Shown one piece after another: positions 1-38,071 of a DNA stretch of 64,000 nucleotides. The notes beneath the pieces are model-generated. The model worked only from the letters and a program-made list of their open reading frames with translations, was not told the DNA's origin and made no database searches. The DNA lies in the IMG/VR virus record IMGVR_UViG_3300030106_006724, positions 25,201 through 89,200 of that record; one strand, 5' to 3'. Position 1 is the stretch's first letter. Every line of letters starts with the position of its first letter. The translations under genes were made by a program, and so were the position numbers. Source of the DNA: a virus.

Positions 1-3
1 ATT

Positions 4-34
4 ATTTGGAAAATTAAATAAAATTACTTATATT
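4..34 (+). promoter_or_regulatory. Early/middle promoter (ATTTG-N20-TATATT)
   Basis: Matches the window-wide AGTTG-N20-TAT(A/C)TT motif; 6 nt upstream of ATG 41. Confidence 0.65.
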
Positions 35-40
35 ATAGAT

Positions 41-1060
41 ATGAAAGACGATAAAGCAAAAGGTTACGAATGGATAGGAGATGCAGACGAAACTGTAGAA
101 GCTCCAGCTAATGAACATTCAGTGAAATACTACGAACCTGATAGAGATTATGATTCTAAATATAATCCTACTAAAGATGATATTAAAACGTTTCCTGATC
201 TTCAAAATGGTCCTTCTTCTTTGATTCAAGGGTCTCCTGTCGCTATACAGCAGGTAGGTATTCATAATTTTAGATTACCTTTAAAGTATAGCAAGAGAGG
301 AGGTGGTGATATAGAATTAGAAACTAAAGTTACTGGTACGGTTTCTTTAGCGGCTCATAAAAAAGGTATTAATATGTCTCGTATCATGAGATCATTTTAT
401 GAATATAAAGATGATTATGTATATGACAAGTTAGATGAAATATTATTAAAGTATAAAGAAAATTTAGAGACCTTTGATGCTAAAATAGGATTACATTTTT
501 CTTACCCTATATTACAACCTTCATTAAGATCAGATAATGCAGGTTATCAATATTATAACTGTACTTTAGAAGGTAATATAGATGATAAAGGTAATTTTAG
601 AAAGTTTTTACATTTCGATTTCGTTTATTCATCTGCTTGTCCTTGTTCTTATGAATTAGCAGAGCATGCTAGAAAATATAGAAATAAAGCAACAGTATCT
701 CATTCTCAAAGATCTGTAGCAAGAATATCTATTGAATTTGACGATATAGTATGGATTGAAGATTTACAAGAGATGTGTGCTAATGCTCTACAGACTGAAA
801 CTCAAGTAGTTGTTAAAAGAGAAGATGAGATGGCATTTGCTGAATTAAATGGTTCTTATCTTAAGTTTGTAGAAGATGCTGCTAGATTACTATATGAGCA
901 GTTAATAGAGGATAAAAGAGTAAAAGATTTTAGAGTTATTTGTTCTCATCAAGAGTCATTACATTCTCATGATGCTGTTTCAGTAATTACAGCTCCTGAT
1001 AGTGAATTTTGTCAAGATGTTCCTCATGAGTTATGGTCAAGTTTAATTCATATATCATAA
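41..1060 (+). CDS. folE2: GTP cyclohydrolase I type 2 (FolE2)
   Basis: IQQVGI, KGINMSR, SACPCS, SHSQRS, ESLHSHDA motifs. Confidence 0.92.
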   Translation: MKDDKAKGYEWIGDADETVEAPANEHSVKYYEPDRDYDSKYNPTKDDIKTFPDLQNGPSSLIQGSPVAIQQVGIHNFRLPLKYSKRGGGDIELETKVTGTVSLAAHKKGINMSRIMRSFYEYKDDYVYDKLDEILLKYKENLETFDAKIGLHFSYPILQPSLRSDNAGYQYYNCTLEGNIDDKGNFRKFLHFDFVYSSACPCSYELAEHARKYRNKATVSHSQRSVARISIEFDDIVWIEDLQEMCANALQTETQVVVKREDEMAFAELNGSYLKFVEDAARLLYEQLIEDKRVKDFRVICSHQESLHSHDAVSVITAPDSEFCQDVPHELWSSLIHIS

Positions 1061-1596
1061 TGTCTAAAATTGAAGAATTAAAAAAATTATGTGGTGAGTT
1101 AAGAACTTTAACTGAACAGACTTTTGATGAGGTTAAGAGTGATAAATATTCTAAATATGAAGATGCTTTAAGATCTTTTATTGATAAGTATGAAATAGAT
1201 CATAGACCATGGGGTAAGTACGAAGTAATGTACAGTAGTCCTTTTGTAAAAGTAAAGAAGATAATAGTTAAACCTCGAGGTATATTATCTTATCAGTATC
1301 ATGATCAAAGAACTGAGGATTGGATAATTACTAGAGGAAGCGCTAAAATAGTACTTGATGATGAAGAGGTATGGAGAACTGAAGGAGAAAGAATTAGAAT
1401 AAAAGTAGGACAGAAGCATAGAGTTAGTAATCCTAGTTTTGATAATATATTAGAATTTATAGAAGTGCAAACAGGAACTTACTTTGGAGAAGATGATATA
1501 ATCAGAATAGAAGATGATTATGGTAGATTAGAAGACGAGCATTTAAGAGATCATGATATAAAAGGAGGAATAATTAATAGTTATGAAAAAAAATAA
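1060..1596 (+). CDS. Cupin, mannose-6-phosphate isomerase type II C-terminal-like
   Basis: RPWGKYEV, LSYQYHDQRTEDW, IEVQTGTYFGEDDIIRIEDDYGR; ATG overlaps the folE2 stop. Confidence 0.85.
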   Translation: MSKIEELKKLCGELRTLTEQTFDEVKSDKYSKYEDALRSFIDKYEIDHRPWGKYEVMYSSPFVKVKKIIVKPRGILSYQYHDQRTEDWIITRGSAKIVLDDEEVWRTEGERIRIKVGQKHRVSNPSFDNILEFIEVQTGTYFGEDDIIRIEDDYGRLEDEHLRDHDIKGGIINSYEKK

Positions 1597-1762
1597 AAGT
1601 TTAGCAGAATATATAGTTGAAATAGATGGTAAGCAATATGTACCTTACAGTAAAGCTGTAGAGGCGATAATGCAATCCGTAAGTAGAGAAGTAAGAGAAG
1701 CTATGGATGAAGTAGCTTCCGGAATGAAGGATGTAAATAGTTTATTAGAAGATAATGATTAA
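1583..1762 (+). CDS. Hypothetical protein, 59 aa (not in ORF track)
   Basis: MKKNKSLAEYIVEIDGKQYVPY...; fills the gap and overlaps both neighbours. Confidence 0.65.
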   Translation: MKKNKSLAEYIVEIDGKQYVPYSKAVEAIMQSVSREVREAMDEVASGMKDVNSLLEDND

Positions 1763-2570
1763 AATAGCGCACGAATCTCCTAAGAGTATTTTTGATGATG
1801 TACAGAAAGTAACTGACTACGATTACGCTCTAGTTCATTTATTAGAAGAAGACGAACAGTATCTTAAGCATTTTCAACAAGCTATTAAAAAAGGAAGAGA
1901 AGTAATTTTAGATAATTCAATATTTGAATTAGAAGAAGCTTTTGAAGCTGAAAAATTTGCATACTGGGTTGAAAAATTAAGACCTGAATGGTATATAGTA
2001 CCTGATGCTTTAGAAAACTCTCTTCTTACCATGGCTCAGATGGAAAAATGGAACTCTCAGTATAAAAACCTTCCCGGTAAAAAAATTGGAGTAGTACAAG
2101 GTCAAACTTATCAATCTATTATAGACTGTTATAAGTATATGGATTATGTAGCTGATGTTGATATGATAGCTATATCATTTGATTACTCTTATTATACCGA
2201 ATCAGTACCTCATGCTAATAAGTACGTTAGTTGGATGTTAGGTAGAATAAAATTATTAGGAGACTTACTTAAGCATGGTATAATAAATAAAAATAAACCT
2301 CATCACCTTTTAGGATGTGGATTACCTCAAGAATTTAGCTTTTATAAACATTCAGATTACGATTGGTTATACTCTTTAGATACTTCTAATCCAGTAGTTC
2401 ACGGTATCAAAGGTATTAAATATGGTGATGATGGTTTGTGGAGCAAAGAATCTCAAAAACTTTATGAATTAATTAATTATGAAGTTGAAGATACTAATAT
2501 AATAATGAATAATATACAAAAATTTAGATGGTTAACTAATGGGAGACACAAAGTGGATATCGTTCTTTAG
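1755..2570 (+). CDS. TGT-fold 7-deazaguanine ribosyltransferase/transglycosylase (DpdA-like)
   Basis: VILDNS, IVPDA, IGVVQG, HHLLGCG, SLDTSNP motifs of the TGT barrel; sits between folE2 and queF. Confidence 0.75.
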   Translation: MIKIAHESPKSIFDDVQKVTDYDYALVHLLEEDEQYLKHFQQAIKKGREVILDNSIFELEEAFEAEKFAYWVEKLRPEWYIVPDALENSLLTMAQMEKWNSQYKNLPGKKIGVVQGQTYQSIIDCYKYMDYVADVDMIAISFDYSYYTESVPHANKYVSWMLGRIKLLGDLLKHGIINKNKPHHLLGCGLPQEFSFYKHSDYDWLYSLDTSNPVVHGIKGIKYGDDGLWSKESQKLYELINYEVEDTNIIMNNIQKFRWLTNGRHKVDIVL

Positions 2571-3102
2571 TCAAACAGGATCTGAAATAGCTGATATATC
2601 TGAAGCATTAGGACAAGCTCCTGATGTTATTATTACTAATGATAGACCCGATCATCTTAGAACTATAGATGAAAGAATAGAAAAGCAAGGTTATTTTACC
2701 TGGGCTAATAAACCTTCAGAAGAAGATTATATTAGTTTATTAGAAGCTTATCCTGATGCAATAGTTACTTTACATGGTTGGTTAAGAATAGTACCTCCGT
2801 ATGTCTGTGAACGTTCTAAAATTTATAACGGTCATCCCGGTCTGATAACTAAATATCCAGAACTAAAAGGTAAAGATCCTCAAGAGAAAGCTTTTAAATT
2901 ACAACACGAAGTTATGGGGTGTGTACTTCATGAGGTTTCTCCTGGAGTAGATGAAGGGAAAATACTAATGGAAGAAAGATTTAACTCTCATGGGTTGGAT
3001 CTTAACGGAGTTTTTCGTACCTTAAGAGATAGAAGTTTATACATGTGGATTAAATTTTTAAGAATAGCTTTAATTCATCAAAATTATTATAATGATAACT
3101 AG
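2539..3102 (+). CDS. PurN-like formyltransferase (DpdN-like, putative preQ1 N-formyltransferase)
   Basis: FFSQTGS, LHGWLRIV, NGHPGL, LHEVSPGVDEGKI formyltransferase motifs; context. Confidence 0.82.
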   Translation: MGDTKWISFFSQTGSEIADISEALGQAPDVIITNDRPDHLRTIDERIEKQGYFTWANKPSEEDYISLLEAYPDAIVTLHGWLRIVPPYVCERSKIYNGHPGLITKYPELKGKDPQEKAFKLQHEVMGCVLHEVSPGVDEGKILMEERFNSHGLDLNGVFRTLRDRSLYMWIKFLRIALIHQNYYNDN

Positions 3103-3613
3103 AATAGCTTTAGTAGGAGCAAGTAGTACAGGAAAAACTACTGTATTTGAATTACTTAAAAATAAATTACCTAAGTATGAATTCGTTAATGAATCGACTC
3201 GTACTATAGGTAACTATGGTTTTCCTATAAATGAACAAGGTACTGATGCTACTCAATTAGCTATTAGTAGCTTTCATTTAGAAGCTTTACTTCAACCTAA
3301 TAATTTAGTATTAGATAGATGCTATATGGATGTAGTAGTTTATTCTAAATTTATGGAAAATTTAAGAGCTAGAACTTATAATTATATTGAAGATACTTGG
3401 AATAGAATAAAAAAAGAGTATACTCATTATATTTATTTTCCTATTGAATTTGATTCAGTTGATGATGGAGTAAGGAGTATAGATGAGACTTGGAGAAAAG
3501 ATATAGATGATGAATTCCAAGCTGTATTAGAAGGAGTACGAAAACCTTATTTAACTGTTACTGGATCCCCGATGCAGAGAATTGAACAAATATTAAAATT
3601 TATAAATGAGTAA
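3092..3613 (+). CDS. P-loop nucleotide kinase (NadR/AAA_28-like)
   Basis: GASSTGKTT Walker A; LDRCYMD. Confidence 0.8.
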   Translation: MITRIALVGASSTGKTTVFELLKNKLPKYEFVNESTRTIGNYGFPINEQGTDATQLAISSFHLEALLQPNNLVLDRCYMDVVVYSKFMENLRARTYNYIEDTWNRIKKEYTHYIYFPIEFDSVDDGVRSIDETWRKDIDDEFQAVLEGVRKPYLTVTGSPMQRIEQILKFINE

Positions 3614-4118
3614 ACAATTAGAACTAGACTTTGGCGGTCCTGAAAAATATGTACCTTTCGTTTCAGAGGTAGAAGAATTTAATGCCACGTTTGGCAAACC
3701 TAATAATTATGAACCAACTATTCCAGAGAAAAAAGAATGGCAATTCGTCTATGACTTTATTCTCGAAGAACTTGAAGAATATAGAGAAGCTTGCGAAAGA
3801 GGAGACATCGTCGAAGTTTTGGATGCTCTTTGCGATATTGCTTACGTTTCCATTGGGAACGGTACTATGTTACATGGCCTTAAGGATAAGATATGGCCTG
3901 CTTATCAAGAAGTACAAGCGTCTAATATGTCAAAAGCTTGTACTACTGAAGAAGAAGCAAAAGAAACTGTCGCCCTCAGAACTAAAGAACAGGGTGAAGA
4001 GTGTTATTATGAAAAAGTAGGTGACTATTATATAGTATACCGAAAAAGAGATAAAAAGGTTATGAAATCTATAAATTATTTCAGACCAGATTTAAGTAAA
4101 TTTTTAAAAAATGTATAA
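3606..4118 (+). CDS. MazG-like nucleoside triphosphate pyrophosphohydrolase
   Basis: EELEEY...EVLDALCDIAYV...EVQASNMSK. Confidence 0.88.
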   Translation: MSKQLELDFGGPEKYVPFVSEVEEFNATFGKPNNYEPTIPEKKEWQFVYDFILEELEEYREACERGDIVEVLDALCDIAYVSIGNGTMLHGLKDKIWPAYQEVQASNMSKACTTEEEAKETVALRTKEQGEECYYEKVGDYYIVYRKRDKKVMKSINYFRPDLSKFLKNV

Positions 4119-4476
4119 ATACGGAGCAAAATTAGTTAGAGTAGTCGATGGAGATACAGCTGATGTAATGATCGACTTAGGTTTTGATACTTGGGTTAAG
4201 GCTAGACTTAGATTTAAAGGAGTTGATACCTGGGAAAAAAGAACTAGAAATAAAGAAGAAAAAATAAAAGGTTTAGCTGCTACAGCTTTTACTGCAACTT
4301 ATTTAGAAAAGAATAAAGGTAATTTTACTATTCAATCATACGGTAAAGGTAAGTACGGTAGAGTTTTAGCAGAGATCTTTATAGATGGAGAAGAAAAATC
4401 TCTTAATCAGTTATTAATAGAAAATGGTCATGCGTATATTTACGAAGGCGGTAAAAAACAAGTATTTAATGGATAA
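4111..4476 (+). CDS. Thermonuclease (SNase-like)
   Basis: RVVDGDT, RFKGVDT, GKYGRVLA, LIENGHA. Confidence 0.9.
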   Translation: MYKYGAKLVRVVDGDTADVMIDLGFDTWVKARLRFKGVDTWEKRTRNKEEKIKGLAATAFTATYLEKNKGNFTIQSYGKGKYGRVLAEIFIDGEEKSLNQLLIENGHAYIYEGGKKQVFNG

Positions 4477-5368
4477 TCAAAGTAAAGTAAAAGAAATAGC
4501 AGGTAAACATTTAGGTAAAGTAGGTGGAGCCGGCTATAGCGATCAGTATAATAGAGACTTATTAGTAAAAGTTCCTAGAAAGTTAAATAGAGAAACTTAT
4601 AATCTTTCTGGAAATGAATTTGTAGGAGTTGATACATGGAATGCATATGAAGTATCTGCTATTACTACTAAGGGTCAACCTGTAGCGGGTATGTTAAAAA
4701 TAGTATGCCCTTCTAACTCTGAATTTCACGTAGAATCTAAGTCTATAAAGTTATATTTAAATTCTCTTAATATGACTAAGATAGGAGATACAGCTAAAGA
4801 CTGTATTAAAGGTATAGAAGCTACAGTTAAAAGAGATTTAGATGAATTATTAGAAACTAATACGACTGTATCTTTTTATGCTGATGATTCAGAAACTACT
4901 CCTCTATCCTTTAAAGATTATGAAGATGTAGCCGAAATTGCTAATTTAGATGAAATAGATTTTACCTCTTTTAAATCTGATGCTTCTCAGTTAGAAGCTC
5001 AAGATAATGATGAAGTAGAAGAATTAAGGTATAGATCTAACTTATTAAGATCGAACTGTAGAGTAACTAATCAACCTGATTGGGGTGATGTATTTATCTA
5101 TCTTAGAGGTAAAAAATTACCTACTGCAGCTTCATTAGCAAAGTATATAGTAAGCCATAGAACTGTAAGTCATTTCCATGAAGAGATATGTGAAATGGTA
5201 TTTGCTCATTTATGTGAAGCATTTCAACCAGACCAATTAATGGTTGCATGTTTATATACTAGAAGAGGAGGTTTAGATATTAATCCTATTAGAGCTACTC
5301 ATTCTAGTTTAATACCAGAATTTTTTACTAATCCTGATTTTACTATTCAAAAAACTTTAAGGCAGTAA
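4469..5368 (+). CDS. queF: NADPH-dependent preQ0 reductase QueF (bimodular type)
   Basis: WNAYEVS, VESKSIKLYLNS, SNCRVTNQPDWG, FHEEICE, YTRRGGLDINP; ATG 4469 preferred. Confidence 0.92.
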   Translation: MDNQSKVKEIAGKHLGKVGGAGYSDQYNRDLLVKVPRKLNRETYNLSGNEFVGVDTWNAYEVSAITTKGQPVAGMLKIVCPSNSEFHVESKSIKLYLNSLNMTKIGDTAKDCIKGIEATVKRDLDELLETNTTVSFYADDSETTPLSFKDYEDVAEIANLDEIDFTSFKSDASQLEAQDNDEVEELRYRSNLLRSNCRVTNQPDWGDVFIYLRGKKLPTAASLAKYIVSHRTVSHFHEEICEMVFAHLCEAFQPDQLMVACLYTRRGGLDINPIRATHSSLIPEFFTNPDFTIQKTLRQ

Positions 5369-5973
5369 TGAATAAACTATGGTCCTTTGGTGATTCTTGG
5401 ACATATGGTCAAGGAGTTAATTCTAATGAAACCTTCACACAGCTTATAGCTGATTCCCTTAATTTAGAACCTTTAAATTTAGGTATACCAGGAGCTGCTA
5501 ATAGTTACATATATAATAAACTTATTCATTACCGTATTAATTTTAAACCTGGTGATTTAGTTTTAATAAACTGGAGTAGTCCTCATAGAGATGAATATAC
5601 AGATAGATATGATTATAAACGTTCTGATAATAAATTAAACTTTAATATAAAATTCTATCCTGAATATTTAAATAATACATATAATAAATTAAAAGAGTTT
5701 AATTTTATTATGACTCAAGCTTTTAATCCTATTTTTGGTTATGACTATAGTTTAAATACTAACTATCACGGTAAAAATTTTATAGAGTGGGGCAAACCTA
5801 ATAATACTTTAGTTGATATTATAAGTGATAATTGGTGTAAAGAAAATAGAAATAATTTATTTATGTCAAATTTTCCTGTTAAAAAAGATTTTTCGATGTT
5901 TGTTAAAGACGATAATCATCCATCACCTAAAGGGCATAAATTAATAGCAGATAAACTTTTAGAATATTTATAA
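5368..5973 (+). CDS. SGNH/GDSL-like protein
   Basis: FGDSWTYG, NLGIPGAAN, DNHPS. Confidence 0.7.
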   Translation: MNKLWSFGDSWTYGQGVNSNETFTQLIADSLNLEPLNLGIPGAANSYIYNKLIHYRINFKPGDLVLINWSSPHRDEYTDRYDYKRSDNKLNFNIKFYPEYLNNTYNKLKEFNFIMTQAFNPIFGYDYSLNTNYHGKNFIEWGKPNNTLVDIISDNWCKENRNNLFMSNFPVKKDFSMFVKDDNHPSPKGHKLIADKLLEYL

Positions 5974-5975
5974 TT

Positions 5976-6233
5976 ATGACAAAAGAAACAGTAGAATCTA
6001 TAAAACTAATCGCAGAAAGAGTCCCCCCTGGAGATAACTGGGAATTAGTAATTGATAAAGAGAACGTAATAGAAGGTTTAGTTCAGACTCTTACTCAATA
6101 TATGCGTAAAACTAAATTTAAAGGTAACTATAGATTAGAGCCTTTACAAGGTAAATTATTCGCTATAGAAGAAGAGCAAGTAAATATTGTTGAACCTGAA
6201 CCTGAAAAGTTTGACCTTTACGGAGAATTTTAG
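5976..6233 (+). CDS. Hypothetical protein
   Basis: ORF in operon. Confidence 0.7.
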   Translation: MTKETVESIKLIAERVPPGDNWELVIDKENVIEGLVQTLTQYMRKTKFKGNYRLEPLQGKLFAIEEEQVNIVEPEPEKFDLYGEF

Positions 6234-6239
6234 AAAATT

Positions 6240-6270
6240 AGTTGGAATTCTGAGATATTCTTCTTATATT
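6240..6270 (+). promoter_or_regulatory. Early/middle promoter AGTTG-N20-TATATT
   Basis: Exact motif; 6240-6271 is identical to 44725-44756. Confidence 0.8.
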
Positions 6271-6289
6271 AGGTTAATAAAACGGTTAT

Positions 6290-6721
6290 ATGGATAAAGT
6301 TTATCATTGGTTAGAAGAAGGTTTTATTCAAGCTGGTACTTTCTTTATTTCCGATAAATATACTCAAGGTGTTGATGTAGAATTTATAGTAGATAGAAAA
6401 GATTGGTATATACCTGGAGTATATATTTTTGCTGATAAACAAGGTAGTGTACTTAAAATAGGTGAAAGTGGTAAGCTTGCCGATAGAATGTTTAATCAAT
6501 ATAAGTGTATTGATAACGTTACTAATAATCGAATTAGAGAAAGCTTAAAAGCTGATTATAAAAAAGTTAATTTTTTCTTTTTTCCGGTTCCTCAAGCAAC
6601 TGAAACTATAATGAATAGAGAGATTACAGGAGCTTTTCATAAGCAGTTAGAAGAACAATTATTAAAAGAATACTTTAAAAATACTGGTAAACTTCCTACT
6701 TGGAACGAAATGAGAAAATAA
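6290..6721 (+). CDS. GIY-YIG-like nuclease
   Basis: PGVYIF...LKIGES...LADRM, late E and N. Confidence 0.65.
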   Translation: MDKVYHWLEEGFIQAGTFFISDKYTQGVDVEFIVDRKDWYIPGVYIFADKQGSVLKIGESGKLADRMFNQYKCIDNVTNNRIRESLKADYKKVNFFFFPVPQATETIMNREITGAFHKQLEEQLLKEYFKNTGKLPTWNEMRK

Positions 6722-6724
6722 TAT

Positions 6725-9052
6725 ATGCAATTAGAGAAAAAATACTATACCGTTCAAGATAATGAAACTCTTGAACTCTTATATAAACATATTGAATCGT
6801 CTGATATACTAGCTGTCGATACTGAAACTTCTGGTCTTAATCCTCGTAAAGATAAAATAGTTGGTTGGTCAGTATCTGGCGACGAAGGTGTAGGGTTTTA
6901 CCTACCTACCTTAGTTTGGAACTTTGATAAAGATGAATTAGAACTTCAAACTATTAACGGTAAATCTACTGAAACTATATCTAAAAACTTTATGAGAATG
7001 CTAAAAGGTAAAAAATTAGTATTTCATAATGCTTCGTTTGACTGTCAGTTTATTAAAAATTATTTTGGAGTAGATCTTATTGAAGATATATGGGTTGATA
7101 CTGGTCTATTAGTTCATACTGTATATGAAGAAGGTGCGTTTGGTTATGGTAATCCTTTTGGTTTGAAACCTATTGCTATAATGAATCAGAAAGAATTAGG
7201 TTTAGATGTAGAAAAAGCTGCTAACGAAGAGCAATTAGAACTTAAAGGCTCTATAAAGAAAAATGGCGGTCAGACTACTAAGTTACTATTTGAGATTTAT
7301 AAAGCTGATTTAGATATTCTATCTAAGTATGCTTCTGCCGATACCGATTTAACTTTACGTATATGTAACTTATATCTAAAGAAATTAAAAGAAGAAGGGC
7401 TAGAGAAGTTTTTCTTTGAAGAAGAAGTTATGCCGATATATAGAGAAGTAACTGTTCCTATGGAATCTGCAGGTGTTGATTTAGATGTAGAACTAATAGA
7501 AAAGACTCATAAAGAGATTAGCGAAGACTTAATTAAAAATAAAGAGATAGTAATGAAATCTTTATTAGCTATTTCTGAAGTTAAAGAATGGGTATTAGGT
7601 ACTGCATTAAGTAACTACCCTGTATCTCATAAAGGTAACTGGGCTCAGAATTTGGTTACTCGTTATTCTTTACCTTTACCTAAGTCTGAAAAAACTGGTA
7701 AGTATTCTCTTACTAGTAAAAATATAGAAGAGTTAGAGGAATCTAATGTTAAGCAGTTTTTACTTACTGGTGATACTGATCTTATAGAAGATGTAGAAAA
7801 AGCTCGTATATCGATGGCTATGTGGAAAGAATCTAATGATGGAGAGTATATTAATATTCAATCTAAGAAGCATTTAGGTGAAATAGTATTTAAGTATATG
7901 GGTATTAAACCTAAAGTAGCTGGTGCTAATACTAAATCTGGTAGAGCTAAGTTTGATATGGATATGGTAGAAGAACTAGCGAAAGAATATCCTTGGGCTG
8001 AAAACTTAAGAATATATAATAAACTACTTAAGATTAAATCTACTTATGTAGATAGGTTTAGAGATAGAAATGAAGATGGTAAATATTATTTTTACTTTAA
8101 GCAGAATGGTACTGTATCTGGTCGATATGGATCTGATGCTCAACAGTTACCTAAACCTTTAGAAGAAGGTGAAGATGCTCCTATTATTATGAAGTATGTT
8201 AATATAGTAAGGGCTTTCTTAGTAGCCGGTAAAGGTAGAAAAGTTATTGATGCTGATTACGAATCATTAGAACCTCATTGCTTTGCCTCAGTATCTGGTG
8301 ATAAAAAACTTCAAGAAATATTCGATAATGGTTGGGACTTTTATTCTTATGTCGCTATTCAAACTGAAAAGCTTGATGGAGTATCTGCTGATAAAAAAGC
8401 TGATAACTACCTTAAAAAATTAGATCCTGTTAAAAGAAATAAAGCTAAAGCTTATTCTTTAGGAGTTGCATATGGAATGGAAGCTTATGCTCTTAAAATG
8501 ACTTTAGGAGTAGATCAAAAGACTGCTGAAGGATTAATAAAGGGTTACTTAGATGGTTTTCCTGGTTTAAGAGATTGGAGAGAAAACTCTCGTAGGCAAG
8601 TAAAAGATCATGGTTTTATTAAAAATTATGTTGGTCGTATAAGGCACGTACCTAAGGTAAAAAAGATTTATGAAAAGTTTGGTGAAAAGATGATGGATTG
8701 GAGGTTTAGAAAAGACTTAGAGAATCAAGGATATAATAGAGATGATATAGTTAAGGTTTATAGAGATTACCGTAATGGATTAAACTTCTGCCTTAACTTT
8801 CAATTACAATCTTTAGCTGCAGCGGTAGTAAATAGAGCTGCTGTAGTTATTAATAGGACTGCTAGAGAAAAAGGCTTCGATGCTTTCGTTCAAGCACAAG
8901 TACATGACCAGTTAATTATAAACGTGAAAGACGATCAAGCTGAAGCCTTTGCTCCTTTAGTTCAAGAGATTATGGAAAATACTACTAAGTTACCTGGAGT
9001 AACTTTAAAAGCTCCTCCTGAAATAGCTAATAACTGGAGAGACGGACATTAA
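6725..9052 (+). CDS. polA: Family A DNA polymerase with 3'-5' exonuclease
   Basis: AVDTETSG, FHNASFD, YASADT; SGRYGS, ADYESLE, RNKAKAYSLGVAYG, QVHDQL. Confidence 0.95.
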   Translation: MQLEKKYYTVQDNETLELLYKHIESSDILAVDTETSGLNPRKDKIVGWSVSGDEGVGFYLPTLVWNFDKDELELQTINGKSTETISKNFMRMLKGKKLVFHNASFDCQFIKNYFGVDLIEDIWVDTGLLVHTVYEEGAFGYGNPFGLKPIAIMNQKELGLDVEKAANEEQLELKGSIKKNGGQTTKLLFEIYKADLDILSKYASADTDLTLRICNLYLKKLKEEGLEKFFFEEEVMPIYREVTVPMESAGVDLDVELIEKTHKEISEDLIKNKEIVMKSLLAISEVKEWVLGTALSNYPVSHKGNWAQNLVTRYSLPLPKSEKTGKYSLTSKNIEELEESNVKQFLLTGDTDLIEDVEKARISMAMWKESNDGEYINIQSKKHLGEIVFKYMGIKPKVAGANTKSGRAKFDMDMVEELAKEYPWAENLRIYNKLLKIKSTYVDRFRDRNEDGKYYFYFKQNGTVSGRYGSDAQQLPKPLEEGEDAPIIMKYVNIVRAFLVAGKGRKVIDADYESLEPHCFASVSGDKKLQEIFDNGWDFYSYVAIQTEKLDGVSADKKADNYLKKLDPVKRNKAKAYSLGVAYGMEAYALKMTLGVDQKTAEGLIKGYLDGFPGLRDWRENSRRQVKDHGFIKNYVGRIRHVPKVKKIYEKFGEKMMDWRFRKDLENQGYNRDDIVKVYRDYRNGLNFCLNFQLQSLAAAVVNRAAVVINRTAREKGFDAFVQAQVHDQLIINVKDDQAEAFAPLVQEIMENTTKLPGVTLKAPPEIANNWRDGH

Positions 9053-9062
9053 AATTAATTAT

Positions 9063-10013
9063 ATGATTAGAACAGCAGAATGTATAACACCTAAGCATCC
9101 AGATAAAATCTGTGATAGAATATCAGATGCTATTTTAGATGCATGTTTAAAGCAGGATCCTAATACAAGAGCTGCTATAGAAACTATGGGAGGTCACGGA
9201 ATTATAACCGTAACCGGCGAACTAACTACAACAGCCTTTGTTGATATTCCGGAAGTAGTAAAATCAGTATACGGTAAAGATATAGGAGTACAAACCAATA
9301 TAGTAATGCAATCACCAGAAATAGCTCAAGGAGTAGATACTGGCGGAGCAGGTGATCAAGGTATTATGATAGGATATGCTTGTACTGAAAATGATGAAAT
9401 GGTACCTCTAGAGTATTATTTTGCAAGAAAGTTATGTGAATCTATCTATATAAATCATCCTTATGATGGAAAAACTCAAGTTACTATATTAGAAGATGAT
9501 TCATTAAATGTAGTAGCATCGTTTCAAAATACTTCTACTGAAGACTTAATACATCATATAAAAGATTTCTTTGCAGAAACAAATTATACCATCAATTCTC
9601 TACATTGCAACCCAGCTGGAGAATGGAATTTAGGAGGCTTTGATGCTGATACAGGATTAACAGGAAGAAAATTAGCTGTAGATAACTATGGTCCTAGAAT
9701 ACCTTTAGGTGGAGGAGCTTTTAGCGGTAAGGATAGTTCTAAAGTAGATAGATCAGCAGCATATATGGCTAGAAGAATAGCTACAGACTATATAGGAAAA
9801 TATAAAGCTAGTGAAGTTTATGTAACTCTAGCTTATGCTATAGGACATGATAAACCTTTACAAGCTACAGCTTTAGTAGATGGAAAAGAAATTTATATAA
9901 ACGACTATGATTTATCTCCAAAAGGAATAGTAGAGTTTTTAGGTTTAAAACAACCTATTTTCTACGAAACTTCTAAATGGGGGCATATGGGAAAAAACTT
10001 TTCATGGAATTAG
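9063..10013 (+). CDS. metK: S-adenosylmethionine synthetase
   Basis: HPDKICDRISDAILD, GAGDQGIMIGYA, DTGLTGRK, GGGAFSGKD, KVDRSAAY. Confidence 0.95.
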   Translation: MIRTAECITPKHPDKICDRISDAILDACLKQDPNTRAAIETMGGHGIITVTGELTTTAFVDIPEVVKSVYGKDIGVQTNIVMQSPEIAQGVDTGGAGDQGIMIGYACTENDEMVPLEYYFARKLCESIYINHPYDGKTQVTILEDDSLNVVASFQNTSTEDLIHHIKDFFAETNYTINSLHCNPAGEWNLGGFDADTGLTGRKLAVDNYGPRIPLGGGAFSGKDSSKVDRSAAYMARRIATDYIGKYKASEVYVTLAYAIGHDKPLQATALVDGKEIYINDYDLSPKGIVEFLGLKQPIFYETSKWGHMGKNFSWN

Positions 10014-10045
10014 TTGCCTATTAAATGAAAATAGTATATATTTAT
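10012..10045 (+). promoter_or_regulatory. Early/middle promoter with overlapping TATTTAT element
   Basis: AGTTG-N20-TATATT at 10012-10042; TATTTAT at 10039-10045. Confidence 0.7.
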
Positions 10046-10126
10046 TATATATTGAAAGATCGACTCGAGAGCGATTTATTTTTAATATGTTAAACCGCGA
10101 GCTTAGGCCGCACAAATTTAAATGAT

Positions 10127-10534
10127 ATGAGTACATTATTTTATAGACCATCCCCTTTCGACATTTTAGTTCGAAATTTTTTTCAAGACGCAAGCCAATT
10201 TTCACCGCTTGCTGAAACCAAATTACAACATCCTGTAGATATCTATCAGACTGATAAAAGTCTTAATATTGATATAGCTTGTACAGGGATCTCTAAAGAA
10301 GAGATCGAGATTCAAATTCAAGATAATATCTTAAAAATCAATTACGATAAAGGTAAAGATGATAAATTAGAGTATATACATAAAGGTATAGCTAAAAGAT
10401 CGTTTAACTTAGGTTGGAAGATTGATAGTAAGTTTAATCTTGGAAAAGCAAACGCTAAGTTTGAAAATGGGTTGTTAGCCATTAGTATCCCTTATGCTAA
10501 AGGGTCAGAGTTAAAAACTTTGAAAATTAGCTAA
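10127..10534 (+). CDS. Small heat shock protein Hsp20
   Basis: PVDIY, YIHKGIAKRSF, AKFENGLLAISIP. Confidence 0.92.
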   Translation: MSTLFYRPSPFDILVRNFFQDASQFSPLAETKLQHPVDIYQTDKSLNIDIACTGISKEEIEIQIQDNILKINYDKGKDDKLEYIHKGIAKRSFNLGWKIDSKFNLGKANAKFENGLLAISIPYAKGSELKTLKIS

Positions 10535-10549
10535 ATTTTTTTGTTCTCG

Positions 10550-10580
10550 AGTTGGATCTTTTATAAAAATTTATTATATT
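10550..10580 (+). promoter_or_regulatory. Early/middle promoter AGTTG-N20-TATATT
   Basis: Exact motif upstream of groES. Confidence 0.75.
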
Positions 10581-10598
10581 ATATTAAAAGAAAGTTAT

Positions 10599-10910
10599 AT
10601 GCCAAAGTTATTAAACCCCGCAAATGATAGAGTACTTATCAAGCCTATAGATGAAGGTGAACAGACTTACGGGTCTATAGTTATTCCTGATATGGGTAAA
10701 GAAAAACCTGAAATGGGAGAAGTACTAGCCGTAGGACCTGGTAGATTATCAGAATATGGCAAAATGATACCGATAAGATCTTGTAAAGTAGGAGATATAG
10801 TTTTAGTTCCTAAAATAGGTTCTCTAAGAATAGATTTCGATGGAGAAGAATATTATATTACAAGAGATAGTGAAATATTAGCAGTAGTAAAAGAATCAAA
10901 TAATGAGTAA
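10599..10910 (+). CDS. groES: Co-chaperonin GroES
   Basis: PANDRVLI, GSIVIPD, KEKP, GEVLAVGPG, EILAV. Confidence 0.95.
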   Translation: MPKLLNPANDRVLIKPIDEGEQTYGSIVIPDMGKEKPEMGEVLAVGPGRLSEYGKMIPIRSCKVGDIVLVPKIGSLRIDFDGEEYYITRDSEILAVVKESNNE

Positions 10911-12546
10911 AAAAATTACATTTTCAAAAGACGCTAGGAATAAATTACTAAGCGGAGTTAATCAATTAGCAAATGCTGTAACAGCAACGTTAGGCCCTTC
11001 CGGAAGAAACGTTATTATAGAAAAAGATATGGGTAATCCAGTATCTACTAAAGATGGAGTTACGGTAGCTAAATCGATAGAGTTAAAAGATAAAGTAGAA
11101 AATTTAGGAGCACAAATAGTAAAACAAGCAGCTATTAAAACTGCTGACTATGCTGGTGATGGTACTACTACGTCTACTTTATTAGCTCAAGAAATTTTAA
11201 AAGAAGGTATAACTAGAATGGAAGCTGGTAGTAATGCAGTAGATATCAAAAAAGGTATAGATAACGCTACTGAAAAAGTTACTGATTTCTTATCTAGCAT
11301 ATCTAAAGATATTACAGATGAAGTACAATTAGAACAAATTGCTACTATATCTGCAAATAATGATAAAGAAGTTGGAAAGTTAATATCAACAGCCATGGAC
11401 AAGGTAGGGAGAGATGGAGTAGTTACGATTGAAGAGTCGAAGACAGGAGAGACGTATCTGGAAACAGTAGAAGGAATGCAATTCGACAGAGGTTATAAAT
11501 CTCCATATTTTGTTACGGACAATAATTCTATGACATCAGTACTGAAGGATCCTTTTATTCTTATTGTCGATAAGAGGTTAAATCAGGTCAAAGAGTTACT
11601 TCCTATCTTGGAGGCTGTTTCTCAACAGAATAAATCGTTATTAATTATAGCAGAAGATATAGACGGAGAGGCTTTATCTACTATGGTAGTTAATAAAATG
11701 AGAGGAATATTAGCCTGTGCTGCTGTTAAAGCTCCTGATTTTGGAGATAGAAGAAAGGCTATCATGGAAGATATAGCTGAATTAACCGGAGGTCAAGTAG
11801 TATCATCCGAAAAAGGTATGAGATTAGAAAAGTTTGATACTGGATGGTTAGGTAAGGCTAATAAAGCTACTATATCTAAAGAGTCTACTACTATTATAGA
11901 TGCTCAAGGATCTGAAGAATCTATTAATCAAAGAATAGCTTATCTAAAAGATCTTATTGAAGAATCAAATTCTCCTTTCGAAAAAGAAAATTTACAAAAT
12001 AGATTAGCTAAATTTATAGGAGGAGTTGCTGTAGTTAATGTAGGCGGTCATACTGAGATAGAAATGAAGGAAAAGAAAGATAGAGTTGAAGATGCTTTAC
12101 ATGCTACTAAAGCTGCATTAGAAGAAGGAGTTTTACCTGGAGGAGGAGTAGCATTATTAAATGCTGCAAATAATTTAGTTCAAAGCTTAGATGGAGTAGA
12201 TAATCGTGATGAAAGAACTGGTTACGATATAGTTATTAATGCTATAGAACAACCTTTCTTTAAAATACTAACTAATGCAGGATTATCAGATACTTATATT
12301 ACTAATATTGAAACTAATATTAAACAAACAGGAGACGTATGGGAAGGATTTAATCCTAGAGTAGATAAATCTGTTAATATGTTTAACGAAGGAATTATCG
12401 ATCCTACTAAAGTAACGAGATTAGCATTAGAAAATGCTTCCTCTGTTGCCGGTACTTTACTTATAACTGAAGCAGTAGTATCAAAAGGAAAAGAAAAAGA
12501 AAATAAACCAGTCGGAGGCGTAGATCCAAATATGCTTTTAGGCTAA
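10903..12546 (+). CDS. groEL: Chaperonin GroEL
   Basis: TLGPSGRNV, TKDGVTVAK, AGDGTTT, EGMQFDRGY, KAPDFGDRRK, GIIDPTKV. Confidence 0.97.
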   Translation: MSKKITFSKDARNKLLSGVNQLANAVTATLGPSGRNVIIEKDMGNPVSTKDGVTVAKSIELKDKVENLGAQIVKQAAIKTADYAGDGTTTSTLLAQEILKEGITRMEAGSNAVDIKKGIDNATEKVTDFLSSISKDITDEVQLEQIATISANNDKEVGKLISTAMDKVGRDGVVTIEESKTGETYLETVEGMQFDRGYKSPYFVTDNNSMTSVLKDPFILIVDKRLNQVKELLPILEAVSQQNKSLLIIAEDIDGEALSTMVVNKMRGILACAAVKAPDFGDRRKAIMEDIAELTGGQVVSSEKGMRLEKFDTGWLGKANKATISKESTTIIDAQGSEESINQRIAYLKDLIEESNSPFEKENLQNRLAKFIGGVAVVNVGGHTEIEMKEKKDRVEDALHATKAALEEGVLPGGGVALLNAANNLVQSLDGVDNRDERTGYDIVINAIEQPFFKILTNAGLSDTYITNIETNIKQTGDVWEGFNPRVDKSVNMFNEGIIDPTKVTRLALENASSVAGTLLITEAVVSKGKEKENKPVGGVDPNMLLG

Positions 12547-12564
12547 ACAATTAAATTTTAAATT

Positions 12565-12732
12565 ATGAATAAGCAAGAATTATTTGAACAAATCGTTTCA
12601 CATTTTGAAGAATTTGAAGCACATCATAGTGGTACTACAAAAGTATCACAAAGAAGAGCAAGAGCTGCAATTGGTTCTATTAAGAAGTTAATTACTCCTT
12701 ATAAGAAAGCAAGTGTAGCGGAGTCGAAGTAG
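12565..12732 (+). CDS. Histone H1-like (Hc1-type) small basic protein, 55 aa (not in ORF track)
   Basis: MNKQELFEQI...TKVSQRRARAAIGSIKKLITPYKKASVAESK resembles the Bacteroidota Hc1 pattern K-x4-RAR...YRK-x-S. Confidence 0.65.
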   Translation: MNKQELFEQIVSHFEEFEAHHSGTTKVSQRRARAAIGSIKKLITPYKKASVAESK

Positions 12733-12770
12733 GGGGCGTTTTTCTCTCTTTGCCACGCGCGAATTTGAAG

Positions 12771-12797
12771 AACCTTCCGGAGACGGAGGGTTTTTTT
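12771..12797 (+). terminator. Rho-independent terminator
   Basis: AACCTTCCG-GAGA-CGGAGGGTT followed by a T tract. Confidence 0.88.
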
Positions 12798-12821
12798 GTA
12801 TATTTATAGTAAACGTTTTAT

Positions 12822-13637
12822 ATGAAAGGAGACTACTACTCTCAATTTAAAAGGGTTTTTATGCGTAAACATGCAAATAGTATAGTGAATTATACTACCC
12901 CGGATAACGAAGAGCTATTTAAAGAGAACCTTGCAAAATACCCCGATAATAAAGAGTTATTACATTATCGAGATAACCCTATAAAGTATGCGTTAAATGA
13001 TTATGGTTTTAGAACACCGGATAATTTTGATAATGCTGAAGAAGAGGGTAATGTATTTCTGGGTTGTAGTCATACTTTTGGTATAGGACATTATTTAGAA
13101 AATACTTGGTCTTGGAGACTTAACCAAAAGATTGGAGGTAAGTTTTGGAATCTATCTGCGCCGGGAACAGGAATAGGAACCGCTGCGCGTTTGTTGGGAG
13201 AATTTAAAAATAAATTAAAAATAAAAAATATATTTCTCTACACTCCTTTCTGTTATAGGTATGAGGTTTATGAAGCTAAAAAAGGGGTATGGATAAATAT
13301 ATCTCCTGCTAATGTCTTTCACCATTATATAGAAGTATCAGATGAAGTAAGATTCATCTTAGGACAAGAAGAAAATATGAGATTAAATTGGAGAACTAAT
13401 CTTGCTGCTATAAAATACTATGCTCATGAAGTAGGAGCTAAATTATTTAGTATTGAAAATATAGATTTTTATGTTAATAATAATGATAACTTTCCAGAAA
13501 TAGCTAGAGATATATTACATCCAGGAGTTAGTTATCAAGATTTAGTTTATGATAAATTTTTAGATGCATATAAAAATAATTTACCATTATGGGAAGAACC
13601 TGCTAGCAGTTTTAAACCGTTAAAGACTTTGATATAA
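12822..13637 (+). CDS. SGNH-like protein
   Basis: LNDYGFR, FLGCSHTFG, NLSAPGTG, ARDILHPG; ends KTLI; TATTTAT at 12801. Confidence 0.65.
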   Translation: MKGDYYSQFKRVFMRKHANSIVNYTTPDNEELFKENLAKYPDNKELLHYRDNPIKYALNDYGFRTPDNFDNAEEEGNVFLGCSHTFGIGHYLENTWSWRLNQKIGGKFWNLSAPGTGIGTAARLLGEFKNKLKIKNIFLYTPFCYRYEVYEAKKGVWINISPANVFHHYIEVSDEVRFILGQEENMRLNWRTNLAAIKYYAHEVGAKLFSIENIDFYVNNNDNFPEIARDILHPGVSYQDLVYDKFLDAYKNNLPLWEEPASSFKPLKTLI

Positions 13638-13753
13638 TGAAAAAGATAGTAGCTACAATGAAGGAAATATATGATGCGATGAAACCTAACGTTTATCGTA
13701 ATAGAAAGAAATATACTCGTAAAACAAAACATAAGAATAAAAATGAAAATTAA
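13637..13753 (+). CDS. Small basic peptide, 38 aa (not in ORF track)
   Basis: MKKIVATMKEIYDAMKPNVYRNRKKYTRKTKHKNKNEN; overlaps both neighbours. Confidence 0.6.
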   Translation: MKKIVATMKEIYDAMKPNVYRNRKKYTRKTKHKNKNEN

Positions 13754-14225
13754 TTTATTAGATTATATACATACTATAAAAGACTTTCCTAAAGAAGGGA
13801 TTTACTTTAAAGATATACAACCTCTATTAGCTGATACTGTAGCATTTAAACAAGCTATAACTGAAATGGGTAGATTAGTTGAACAACCTGATTATTGGGT
13901 TGGTATAGAATCTAGAGGTTTTATCTTTGCTTCTGCTTTAGCCGCTACTTTCGGAGGAGGGTTAAGATTGATAAGAAAGGAAGGTAAATTACCTCCTGAT
14001 TTTTTAGTTAAAGAATCTTACGACTTAGAATACGGCAGTGATACTATAGAAATGAAACGAGGTAATGGATCAGTAATATTAGTTGATGATGTAATCGCTA
14101 CCGGAGGCACTATGAATGCATCGGAAAACATCGTATCTAATGCAGGTTATGATTTATTAGATAAATTAGTATTAATAGATATTGGAATAGCTGAGAACAA
14201 CGTTAAATCTTTAATTAAATATTAA
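13743..14225 (+). CDS. apt: Adenine phosphoribosyltransferase
   Basis: DFPKEGIYFKDI, GIESRGF, IRKEGKLP, YDLEYG, VDDVIATGGT. Confidence 0.93.
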   Translation: MKINLLDYIHTIKDFPKEGIYFKDIQPLLADTVAFKQAITEMGRLVEQPDYWVGIESRGFIFASALAATFGGGLRLIRKEGKLPPDFLVKESYDLEYGSDTIEMKRGNGSVILVDDVIATGGTMNASENIVSNAGYDLLDKLVLIDIGIAENNVKSLIKY

Positions 14226-14767
14226 TGGAAAATAAAATACTTTTACTTTCTGCTACTGACTACGAACATGACTGTAAAGACTTATTTGGTATACCGATTC
14301 ATATCACAGGTATAGGTAAAATTAATGCAGCAGTAAATAGTACTAGATTGATACAAAAATACGATCCTGATATAGTTATCAACTTTGGTTCTTGTGGCAA
14401 TTTAAAAGATTATCAAATAGGAGAAGTATTAGAAGTAGGAACGGTAATAAACGATTTAGATACTCTAGGATTTTATAATCAAATGTCTAATATATTAAAT
14501 AAAGATTTAAATATAAAATGTTTAACTACTGATCATATGTACGATAGCTCTCATGATGATTATGTAGAGTCATATATGGAAAAAATAGATGAATGTGATA
14601 TAGTTGATATGGAACTATTTAGTATAGCAGAAAGTTGTAAAATTGCTAAAAAATTCTTATATTCATATAAATGGGTTAGCGACGATGGGAGTAATGACGA
14701 ATGGTTAGAAAACGCTAAAGCCGGTTTTAATAATTTTAAACAAATATTTAAATCTAAACATCTATGA
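14225..14767 (+). CDS. MTA/SAH nucleosidase-like (PNP/UDP family)
   Basis: GIGKINAA, INFGSCG, VDMELFSIA, KWVSDD. Confidence 0.8.
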   Translation: MENKILLLSATDYEHDCKDLFGIPIHITGIGKINAAVNSTRLIQKYDPDIVINFGSCGNLKDYQIGEVLEVGTVINDLDTLGFYNQMSNILNKDLNIKCLTTDHMYDSSHDDYVESYMEKIDECDIVDMELFSIAESCKIAKKFLYSYKWVSDDGSNDEWLENAKAGFNNFKQIFKSKHL

Positions 14768-24495: not shown

Positions 24496-24837
24496 ATGAG
24501 TAAAAAAACTATAGAAGTTTTAAAGAAAGAATACCCTACCATTTACAACGCTTATAAAGAGATAATGGATGAGCAGTTTGAACTGTTCGCTAAAAAGCAT
24601 CTCGATTACGGAATGGGTAATGTATCAGCTGGTACTCAATTAGTAAATGAAGAAGAGAAAGAATTTGCTATGACAGGACTTTGGTATAGACTATCTGATA
24701 AAATTAACAGATGGAAAAATATGATACTTACTGGTCGTAAAGCTCAAAATGAAACGTTGATAGATACCTTCCAGGATATTACTAACTACGGAATTATCGC
24801 TCAGTTAGTATTTAACGGTAAATGGAAAAATAAATAA
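24496..24837 (+). CDS. Nucleotide-modification-associated domain 1 (DUF1599-like)
   Basis: KKHLDYG, RLSDKINR, DTFQDITNYGII. Confidence 0.8.
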   Translation: MSKKTIEVLKKEYPTIYNAYKEIMDEQFELFAKKHLDYGMGNVSAGTQLVNEEEKEFAMTGLWYRLSDKINRWKNMILTGRKAQNETLIDTFQDITNYGIIAQLVFNGKWKNK

Positions 24838-25811: not shown

Positions 25812-26000
25812 ATGATAAAAGATGAAAAGTTAACATCCGTTAAAATCACACAGCCTCACTTCGATAAATTTAAAATGGCTTGCTTACAAGATAATTTTTC
25901 TTTTAAAAAGCTTGCAGATCGGGCAATTTTTCTTTATATTACAGATAAGGAGTTTAAGAAATTAATTCATGATACTGTATCAATTAAATTAAAAAGATGA
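25812..26000 (+). CDS. Small ribbon-helix-helix-like DNA-binding protein
   Basis: LTSVKI strand followed by two helices. Confidence 0.5.
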   Translation: MIKDEKLTSVKITQPHFDKFKMACLQDNFSFKKLADRAIFLYITDKEFKKLIHDTVSIKLKR

Positions 26001-27430: not shown

Positions 27431-27431
27431 T

Positions 27432-28697: not shown

Positions 28698-28699
28698 TT

Positions 28700-29792: not shown

Positions 29793-29794
29793 AT

Positions 29795-37883: not shown

Positions 37884-38071
37884 AAAAACTTATAATACTA
37901 TTTTTACTATTTACTAGTTGTGCAAGCGTACAACAGGAAAGATTAGCACCAGATAATATATTTGATGCAGTTAATATTAATGATAATAATCCTAAAAGGA
38001 ATAAAGGCATAATGAAAACATTAGTATTTAGTACTGCTGTATTTATATTAACTACAATAGCAAACAAATAA
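37880..38071 (+). CDS. Small lipoprotein with C-terminal hydrophobic segment
   Basis: LLFTS-C lipobox. Confidence 0.6.
   Translation: MKKLIILFLLFTSCASVQQERLAPDNIFDAVNINDNNPKRNKGIMKTLVFSTAVFILTTIANK

Follow-up and report, generated by a model that had tools for sequence, protein, structure and literature searches.

The 64,000-nucleotide stretch analysed here (the window) makes up the final 64 kb of a viral contig of 89.2 kb in IMG/VR (record IMGVR_UViG_3300030106_006724, positions 25,201 to 89,200; places on the contig outside the window are given in L003 coordinates). The gene cluster at its start is very probably the module with which an immuto-like phage replaces all of its guanine by formyl-dPreQ1 (fdPreQ1), and thus a new member of a published system. 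This assignment follows from the immuto gene order, the presence of all pathway genes on the contig, the tRNA-guanine transglycosylase (TGT) fold of the enzyme DpdA3, the intact residues of the formyltransferase DpdN, and natural gene fusions. The phage is uncultured and probably infects a member of the Bacteroidota. The predicted product is 7-(formylamino)methyl-7-deazaguanine, which in all likelihood would stand in place of every guanine in the phage DNA. Concerning the route to this product, the favoured reading, to which an even chance is given, is that the base would be exchanged on a free deoxyguanosine nucleoside or nucleotide, before replication, and not in finished DNA.

The published system was described by Cui, Hutinet et al. 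(NAR 2023, PMC10516641), who named the TGT-like gene DpdA3 and the PurN paralogue DpdN. According to Table 1 of that paper, the DNA of phage immuto_2-6A contains no deoxyguanosine (dG) and 345,000 fdPreQ1 per 10^6 nucleotides. An earlier reading of the window from its letters alone (the sequence-only reading) had connected this gene pair with formyl-dPreQ1 in a Flavobacterium phage, and the paper bears this out. It further reports that the DpdA3 phages CP220, phiST and immuto are fully substituted, whereas other DpdA families replace at most 30% of guanine.

The contig shares with immuto_2-6A the order QueD, QueE, phosphoribosyltransferase (PRT), GTP cyclohydrolase, DpdA3, DpdN, kinase, QueF and PolA, with GroES and GroEL later on, and in both phages the PRT lies between QueE and the FolE or FolE2 gene. 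Identities between the two are 77% for DpdA3, 53% for DpdN, 67% for the kinase, 80% for MazG, 60% for QueF and 69% for PolA. However, the cyclohydrolase is FolE type IA in immuto and FolE2 in the window, the MazG gene precedes DpdA3 in immuto but follows the kinase here, and genes for a cupin, a staphylococcal-nuclease-like protein (SNase), a GDSL hydrolase and MetK are additional in the window. Because only 5% of the region aligns at the DNA level, at 80% identity, the phage of the window belongs to a different genus-level lineage from immuto.

Genes between positions 41 and 9052 were called from a listing of open reading frames (ORFs) and three hidden Markov model libraries (Pfam, PHROG and NCBIfam/TIGR families). 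The seven genes named by the sequence-only reading are all present on the plus strand. FolE2, GTP cyclohydrolase I type 2 and the first step from GTP to 7-deazaguanine, occupies 41..1060 (PF02649, E 6.5e-70; NF010200, 273 bits against a cut-off of 215). It is followed by DpdA3, a TGT-fold protein of 271 aa and predicted guanine/7-deazaguanine transglycosylase (1755..2570; no Pfam match, recognised by homology to immuto DpdA and by a fold model), the PurN-like formyltransferase DpdN (2539..3102; PF00551, E 4e-9) and an AAA_28 P-loop kinase of 173 aa resembling the ribosylnicotinamide kinase of NadR (3092..3613; PF13521, E 8.4e-19). Downstream are a MazG-like all-alpha NTP pyrophosphohydrolase (3606..4118; PF01503 (PRA-PH), E 1.9e-10; phrog_671, E 2.4e-30), a bimodular QueF, the preQ0 to preQ1 reductase (4424..5368; QueF_N, E 4e-27; QueF, E 8.3e-16; TIGR03138, E 5.2e-71, under its cut-off), and PolA, a family A DNA polymerase with a 3'-5' exonuclease domain (6725..9052; PF00476, E 6.4e-58; PF01612, E 1.9e-11). 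Six further ORFs lie among these genes and had gone unmentioned; they are described below. QueC, QueD and QueE, correctly said to be outside the window, were found 0.4-9 kb upstream of it on the same contig, which thus carries all pathway genes. By established homology, FolE2, QueD, QueE, QueC and QueF would convert GTP to the free base preQ1. Since nine successive junctions from FolE2 through the GDSL gene overlap by 1-53 nt, these genes constitute one operon.

Comparison with the DpdA subfamilies places the TGT-like protein of the window with DpdA3: it is 76.5% identical to the DpdA of immuto_2-6A and about 41% to proteins annotated as hypothetical in the Campylobacter CP220 group (tblastn), and the family profile reaches 99.0% in hhalign against phiST gp042. 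The relationship to TGT was settled by a fold search, the comparison of sequences being weak (hhalign gave 15.7% against the Tgt of E. coli and 20.5% against a profile of Tgt); the family profile has no match in the PDB. The structure was modelled with AlphaFold2 from 72 sequences of the family (pLDDT 96.6, pTM 0.93), and the Foldseek matches shown for this model are all TGT or DpdA structures (best E 1.2e-7). In VIA-align, with about 232 residues aligned, the model scores Z 17.8 against archaeosine TGT 1iq8, 17.4 against the TGT of Z. mobilis and 17.1 against DpdA 7ui4, which inserts preQ0 into DNA (rmsd 3.6, 233 residues). Homology and model together establish DpdA3 as a TGT-fold enzyme, predicted to exchange bases. 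In the 72 sequences D53 of the LDNS motif is invariant and D209 of the LDTSNP motif nearly so; hhalign, in which the TGT comparison is weak overall, puts D209 within one residue of the aspartate of the TGT motif GIDMFDC. One relative (P0272, 634 aa) is split by an intein with a LAGLIDADG domain directly after the LDNS motif, a position consistent with this motif being part of the active site. DUF6610 is matched by 16 of the 72 members. The family is abundant in nature: clustering at 90% identity gave 3,780 groups, and at 50% identity there were 1,392 representatives (E <= 0.001). A tandem second DpdA3 paralogue at L079:7362-8231 has lost both conserved aspartates (NCS for DNS, ITSHP for DTSNP).

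The neighbourhood of DpdA3 was surveyed in two IMG/VR scans, which confirmed 531 and 585 relatives and each covered the best 80 of them. The pooled scans comprise 156 loci with DpdA3; the sequences of this protein, 95 of them distinct, fall into 21 clusters at 70% identity. At least 3 kb of flanking sequence is available on either side in 56 distinct loci, and 15 clusters were evaluable. For the first scan, BLASTP searches with the window proteins covered the 49 loci with at least 4 kb on either side. The kinase and QueF were matched in all 49, DpdN in 48, MazG and PolA in 44 each, SNase and the cupin in 12 each, and FolE2 in a single locus, while the PRT was matched in 35, or in 43 when two further PRT queries were added, leaving six loci without any PRT nearby.

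The kinase stands out in this survey. A kinase profile matches within 5 kb of DpdA3 in 55 of the 56 loci and in 14 of the 15 evaluable clusters, and in all 55 the gene lies downstream of DpdA3 on the same strand. The median gap of 560 nt is the length of DpdN, and it falls to -7 nt where DpdN is absent. The only locus of the 56 without the kinase is L079, that with the aspartate-less second DpdA3 copy. Among isolated phages, the kinase is directly behind DpdA3 in 18 of 18 records with a close DpdA3 (14 Campylobacter, 4 Flavobacterium), the gap in the Campylobacter phages being 48 nt; the window kinase and CP220 gp057, which is also behind DpdA3, are homologous (28% identity, E 5e-18). More specifically, Pfam annotation of ten diverse loci shows that the kinase is retained without DpdN (L125, L148), without both DpdN and a nearby QueF (L155), and beside a family B polymerase (L138, L155). 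None of DpdN, QueF, MazG and the polymerase is held as tightly in place as the kinase, which is translationally coupled and almost invariable in its position behind DpdA3, and this is the main new argument for base exchange at the level of the monomer. The four loci last mentioned are also of interest in themselves: all lack DpdN, the modules of L138 and L155 stand directly behind the family B polymerase, and the DpdA3-kinase modules of the four probably make derivatives other than fdPreQ1.

In an alignment of 28 kinase sequences the Walker A motif and a DR motif are invariant, and TR, INE, TQ and DDGxR are conserved. The best PDB matches of the profile are to the ribosylnicotinamide kinase (RNK) domain of NadR (1lw7, E 6.5e-7, followed by 9x6f and 6gye, to 1.8e-5), and the next are to the deoxynucleoside kinase 8puu (E 1.5e-4) and the thymidylate kinase 2pbr (E 1.1e-3); two members of the family are above or near the Pfam cut-off for the dNK family. 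By sequence, then, the protein is a member of a small-molecule kinase family whose nearest characterised activity is the conversion of a nucleoside to its 5'-monophosphate. It shares the Walker A and DDGxR motifs with the RNK domain of NadR but is a stand-alone protein, with neither the adenylyltransferase nor the helix-turn-helix domain, and is encoded among 7-deazaguanine and not NAD genes. The position and family of the kinase lend support to the place that the sequence-only reading gave it in the pathway; the order of steps proposed there, in which a nucleotide is phosphorylated after formylation, may need changing, since the nearest characterised relatives act on nucleosides and not on nucleotides. 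In the literature library searched, no paper was found that tests or discusses the kinase, and the term DpdA3 appeared only in two versions of the 2023 paper, in whose main text and one searched supplement file the word kinase has no occurrence (PMC10516641).

Other comparisons of the kinase with DpdA3 are less telling. Pairwise identities of the two proteins correlate (r = 0.85), but those of DpdA3 and QueF do likewise (r = 0.83), so that the correlation speaks for linkage and not for function. In a tree drawn to see if the DpdA3-linked kinases make up a clade of their own, the single Streptomyces sequence falls on a long DpdA3-linked branch, with a long-branch warning. No fusion of kinase and DpdA3 was present among 150 listed representatives or five longer proteins. 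The 180-kb record of Campylobacter phage CC_R7 (PQ092953.1) has only a distant kinase paralogue, with neither a DpdA3 match nor the DpdA3-linked kinase, and may reflect the joint loss of both genes.

In an alignment of DpdN with E. coli PurN, the catalytic Asn, His and Asp of PurN are invariant (N97, H99 and D138), in agreement with PDB alignments to PurN, as is the N-terminal S-x-x-G-S loop. In PurN this loop binds the 5'-phosphate of the ribonucleotide substrate. Homology establishes DpdN as a putative, catalytically intact PurN-type formyltransferase, and it co-occurs with a DpdA and the full FolE-to-QueF pathway, the basis on which such genes were selected in PMC10516641, where the formylation by DpdN is described as predicted. 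Natural fusions are found in metagenomic relatives, of DpdA3 with DpdN in P0166 and P0209 (447 aa) and of DpdA3 with QueF in P0271, P0273 and P0274 (531-568 aa), and suggest that preQ1 may be handed from QueF to DpdA3 and the product then to DpdN. Two further long relatives, P0186 (419 aa; DpdA3 with about 160 additional C-terminal residues) and P0124 (586 aa; 317 additional N-terminal residues), have extensions without a Pfam family, which might encode other tailoring enzymes and hence lead to other 7-deazaguanine derivatives.

The presence of FolE2 instead of FolE, singled out by the sequence-only reading, is indeed unusual, as it is shared by only 3 of the 95 distinct DpdA3 loci. FolE type IA stands in its place in 46 of the 56 related loci, and the nearest relative, L005, whose DpdA3 is 95% identical, has FolE type IA. 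FolE2 is a local replacement of this enzyme.

In the favoured scheme, DpdA3 would swap guanine for preQ1 on a free deoxyguanosine nucleoside or nucleotide, DpdN would formylate the product, whether nucleoside or phosphate-bearing, at its aminomethyl group, and the NadR-type kinase encoded directly downstream would phosphorylate it. Host kinases would finish the triphosphate, as no phage Gmk or NDK was found, and the phage polymerase would incorporate it. The MazG-like enzyme would hold dGTP low and provide dGMP, and the upstream purine PRT would recycle the released guanine towards GTP. The case for exchange on the monomer is that a nucleoside or nucleotide kinase has no obvious task if guanine is exchanged once the DNA is complete. 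The MazG genes, and in DpdN the phosphate loop resembling that of PurN, add a little to this. The acidic motifs EExxE ... D..D of MazG are invariant in 12 sequences, and a MazG-type enzyme lies within 5 kb of DpdA3 in 36 of the 56 loci, drawn from two unrelated MazG families; in phiST, too, a MazG-type gene is beside DpdA3. MazG had been named as part of the pathway, and its motifs are intact, but with this distribution it is a weaker witness than was implied; a comparison with solved structures gave nothing significant. The idea of a modified dGTP is itself not new, having been proposed for Campylobacter phages before DpdA3 was found (PMC6884629); it is the pairing of DpdA3 with the kinase that provides the new argument.

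A comparable logic is seen in other phages with a fully replaced base. Phage T4 makes hydroxymethyl-dC with a dCTPase, a dCMP hydroxymethylase and a dNMP kinase, and the Z-genome phages use PurZ, MazZ, DatZ and DpoZ. The Z pathway is summarised in PMC12783734. Here, too, a phage would combine genes for an NTP pyrophosphatase, a nucleotide-altering enzyme and a kinase with one for a polymerase of its own. Unlike in these systems, the altering enzyme would be a TGT-fold transglycosylase, for which no nucleotide-level precedent is known, and MazG is not universal.

Several considerations weigh against exchange on the monomer, and many of them favour its main competitor. Every characterised enzyme of the TGT superfamily acts on a polynucleotide, either tRNA or DNA, and none is known to use a mononucleotide or nucleoside. 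Complete modification after replication also has a precedent, in the glucosylation of T4 DNA. In this competing view DpdA3 would flip out every guanine after replication and insert preQ1, which DpdN would then formylate within the DNA; the P-loop protein would be an ATP-driven helper resembling DpdB or a salvage kinase, the MazG protein a general pool enzyme, and the salvage kinase and PRT would return released guanine to GTP for further preQ1 synthesis. This possibility is assigned somewhat less than an even chance. Post-replicative insertion is what the authors of the 2023 paper propose (PMC10516641), and a paper of December 2025 still lists 7-deazaguanine as a modification made at the level of the nucleic acid (PMC12783734). 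The bacterial DpdA requires the ATPase partner DpdB (PMC10164549), so that a P-loop neighbour has a conceivable role at the DNA level, though DpdB is of a different fold. A purine PRT nearby in 43 of the 49 loci fits guanine salvage.

In favour of DNA as a substrate, DpdA3 resembles the DNA-acting 7ui4 as closely as it does the tRNA enzymes, and its LDNS and LDTSNP motifs are comparable with the aspartate-containing motifs of this bacterial DpdA and of the DNA-acting 9g DpdA1 (LDSG and CDSSS in 9g), which share the TGT fold. Even so, DpdA3 has no HMMER-detectable similarity to the DNA-acting DpdAs, and hhalign to 9g DpdA gives 2.6%. Three features that might have separated the two groups do not. 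The acidity of DpdA3 (median pI 5.5, net -8, n=72) was dropped as a sign against DNA binding, as 9g DpdA has pI 5.64 and net -8, and E. coli Tgt is equally acidic (pI 5.97). The absence of a CxCxxC zinc motif is likewise shared by 9g DpdA. A polymerase lies within 5 kb of DpdA3 in 38 of the 56 loci (PolA in 30, PolB in 7, a Pol III-like enzyme in one), and PolA is downstream of the cluster as the sequence-only reading had noted, but in 9g the DpdA gene is clustered with FolE, QueD and QueE and also adjoins a polymerase, so that this adjacency does not discriminate. At L088:1390-2715 the contig that bears the 775-aa PolA has one more gene resembling family A polymerases, which is shorter (441 aa, PF00476, E 1.6e-10).

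The kinase and pool genes present further difficulties for the monomer scheme. Phages without DpdA3 also carry members of the kinase family: 117 phage records match it, including 89 of Streptomyces, 5 of Bacteroides and 1 of Rhodococcus phages, and none of these three genera yielded a match to DpdA3 with the threshold relaxed to E <= 10. In phage Karimac (L087, 67035-68446), the single Streptomyces record looked at, the kinase adjoins an FkbM-type methyltransferase; in Streptomyces phages the family may mark another, undescribed nucleotide modification. For two P-loop neighbours of DpdA3, that of phiST, which shares only the P-loop (hhalign 0.5%), and that of Bacillus phage BSTP12 (hhalign 79.6%), identity with this kinase could not be demonstrated, and neither had a significant PDB match. 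MazG is missing near DpdA3 in 20 of the 56 loci, and PF03819 finds none in the whole CP220 and BSTP12 records. CP220 gp055, a protein with HD and P-loop parts encoded next to DpdA3, was considered as a dNTPase but is not counted as a pyrophosphatase, its P-loop half matching the RNA-repair kinase Pnkp1 (E 9.2e-7) and the protein as a whole resembling a kinase-phosphatase of RNA repair. Because immuto, CP220, phiST and BSTP12 encode neither Gmk nor NDK, later phosphorylation would depend on host enzymes accepting the modified nucleotide. Finally, the sample of loci is skewed to relatives of the window, and its lineages are not independent.

Exchange on the monomer is nonetheless preferred to exchange in DNA on account of what the kinase is and where it occurs. 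The P-loop protein belongs to a family of small-molecule kinases (NadR RNK, dNK, TMPK) and is neither ParB-like nor a DNA-dependent ATPase, and for GMP salvage one would expect a kinase of the guanylate-kinase type. Phage DpdA1 and DpdA2 need no helper, and the annotation of the 9g DpdA cluster and its surroundings shows no kinase or MazG, whereas a nucleoside-type kinase follows DpdA3 almost without exception; nor was a kinase homologue found in Escherichia, Mycobacterium, Vibrio or Cellulophaga phage records. The limit of 30% replacement applies to the DNA-acting DpdA families, in contrast to the complete replacement in DpdA3 phages (PMC10516641). Attempts to show DpdA3 activity in E. coli DNA failed, according to the same paper, an outcome that is compatible also with the wrong substrate.

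An alternative without a central role for DpdA3 is improbable. As in the synthesis of toyocamycin and tubercidin, a PRT could join preQ1 or its formylated form (fpreQ1) to phosphoribosyl pyrophosphate, the kinase would raise the resulting ribonucleotide to the diphosphate, and the phage ribonucleotide reductase would reduce it, with DpdA3 in a side role only, such as proofreading of residual G. The contig does encode a ribonucleotide reductase large subunit and a thioredoxin, and the gene between QueE and FolE2, of which only the 3' end (1..17, plus strand) falls in the window, is a purine (xanthine/guanine-type) PRT of 132 aa whose start lies 381 nt before the window (L003:16820-17218; PF00156, E 4.4e-10), with purine PRT 1vdm (E 4.7e-11) and XGPRT as its nearest solved structures. 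Some PRT is also near DpdA3 in most loci of the first scan, as it is in immuto. However, CP220 and BSTP12 contain no PF00156 match anywhere in their genomes, and the PRT of phiST is 17 kb from DpdA3; CP220 and phiST are fully substituted all the same (PMC10516641). The six loci without a nearby PRT, the status of DpdA3 and not the PRT as the universal marker, and the affinity of the kinase to nucleoside kinases and not to NMP kinases point in the same direction.

A role in RNA, with the phage raising the supply of queuosine precursors and tRNA as the substrate of DpdA3, is suggested by the tRNA-guanine transglycosylase fold, and queuosine boosting was weighed by Hutinet in 2019 for phages that carry pathway genes and lack a DpdA (PMC6884629), but it is very improbable given that the DNA of the syntenic immuto is without dG and full of fdPreQ1 (PMC10516641), that no tRNA gene was found in the window, and that the formyltransferase and the DpdA3-DpdN fusions have no counterpart in queuosine synthesis.

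The six other ORFs of the cluster are likewise on the plus strand. A cupin like the C-terminal domain of mannose-6-phosphate isomerase (1033..1596; PF01050, E 5.6e-29) and a 59-aa ORF without a family match (1583..1762) separate FolE2 from DpdA3, and the SNase-like endonuclease (4111..4476; PF00565, E 3.2e-10; phrog_452, E 4.5e-40) separates MazG from QueF. The GDSL/SGNH hydrolase (5368..5973; PF00657, E 2.7e-6) is absent from all 80 related loci of the first neighbourhood scan. The 85-aa ORF that follows (5976..6233) is kept between QueF and PolA in most immuto-like loci, and the 143-aa ORF (6290..6721), with a weak GIY-YIG signal (PF01541, E 0.0091, under cut-off) and 37-40% matches in three loci, is possibly a homing-endonuclease remnant. 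Beyond PolA, the region 9063-14225 encodes a SAM synthetase, Hsp20, GroES, GroEL and an adenine phosphoribosyltransferase. The MetK-like SAM synthetase (9063..10013, plus strand; three MetK domains; TIGR01034, E 1e-74) could feed SAM to the radical-SAM enzyme QueE, and is scarce among relatives, being found in L010 and L017 only. A scan of positions 1-10200 for promoters and terminators gave counts on a par with shuffled sequence.

Elsewhere the window, with a GC content of 27-33% and almost all genes on the plus strand, contains other features of note. A 113-aa ORF at 24496-24837 approaches the threshold for DUF1599, 'nucleotide modification associated domain 1' (24.5 bits, cut-off 25), a domain that also adjoins QueC and ThyX in L125. 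A large set of sugar-nucleotide and glycosyltransferase genes occupies 25997-40992 and, upstream, L003:2487-7900 and 12689-14347; it comprises two GT1, two GT2, two UDP-glucose dehydrogenases, epimerases and one aminotransferase, with two carbamoyltransferases upstream, and its target could be the virion, the host surface or the DNA. A 772-aa protein at 48607-50925 carries Hint/intein domains at residues 461-702, and its host part has no Pfam family.

Complete replacement of guanine by a bulky 7-deazaguanine renders phage DNA resistant to most restriction enzymes, and how such completeness arises is the question at stake. The published view draws solely on the presence of a TGT-like gene, the activity of DpdA3 having resisted demonstration (PMC10516641); the pairing of DpdA3 with the kinase across Flavobacterium-type, Campylobacter and many uncultured phages now offers a concrete pair of enzymes. 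If the monomer reading, held at even probability, is true, DpdA3 would be the first TGT-fold enzyme to exchange the base of a free deoxynucleoside or deoxynucleotide and not of a polynucleotide. Together with the NadR-type kinase it would, with the same balanced likelihood, constitute a pre-replicative pathway supplying 7-deazaguanine nucleotides to the polymerase. Such a pathway would explain why guanine is completely replaced in DpdA3 phages alone, and it would overturn the 2023 conclusion that all 7-deazaguanine DNA modification is post-replicative. Should the exchange take place on the nucleotide, it would also represent a new enzymatic route to analogues of 7-deaza-dGTP substituted at position 7, compounds that serve in sequencing and in the labelling of DNA.

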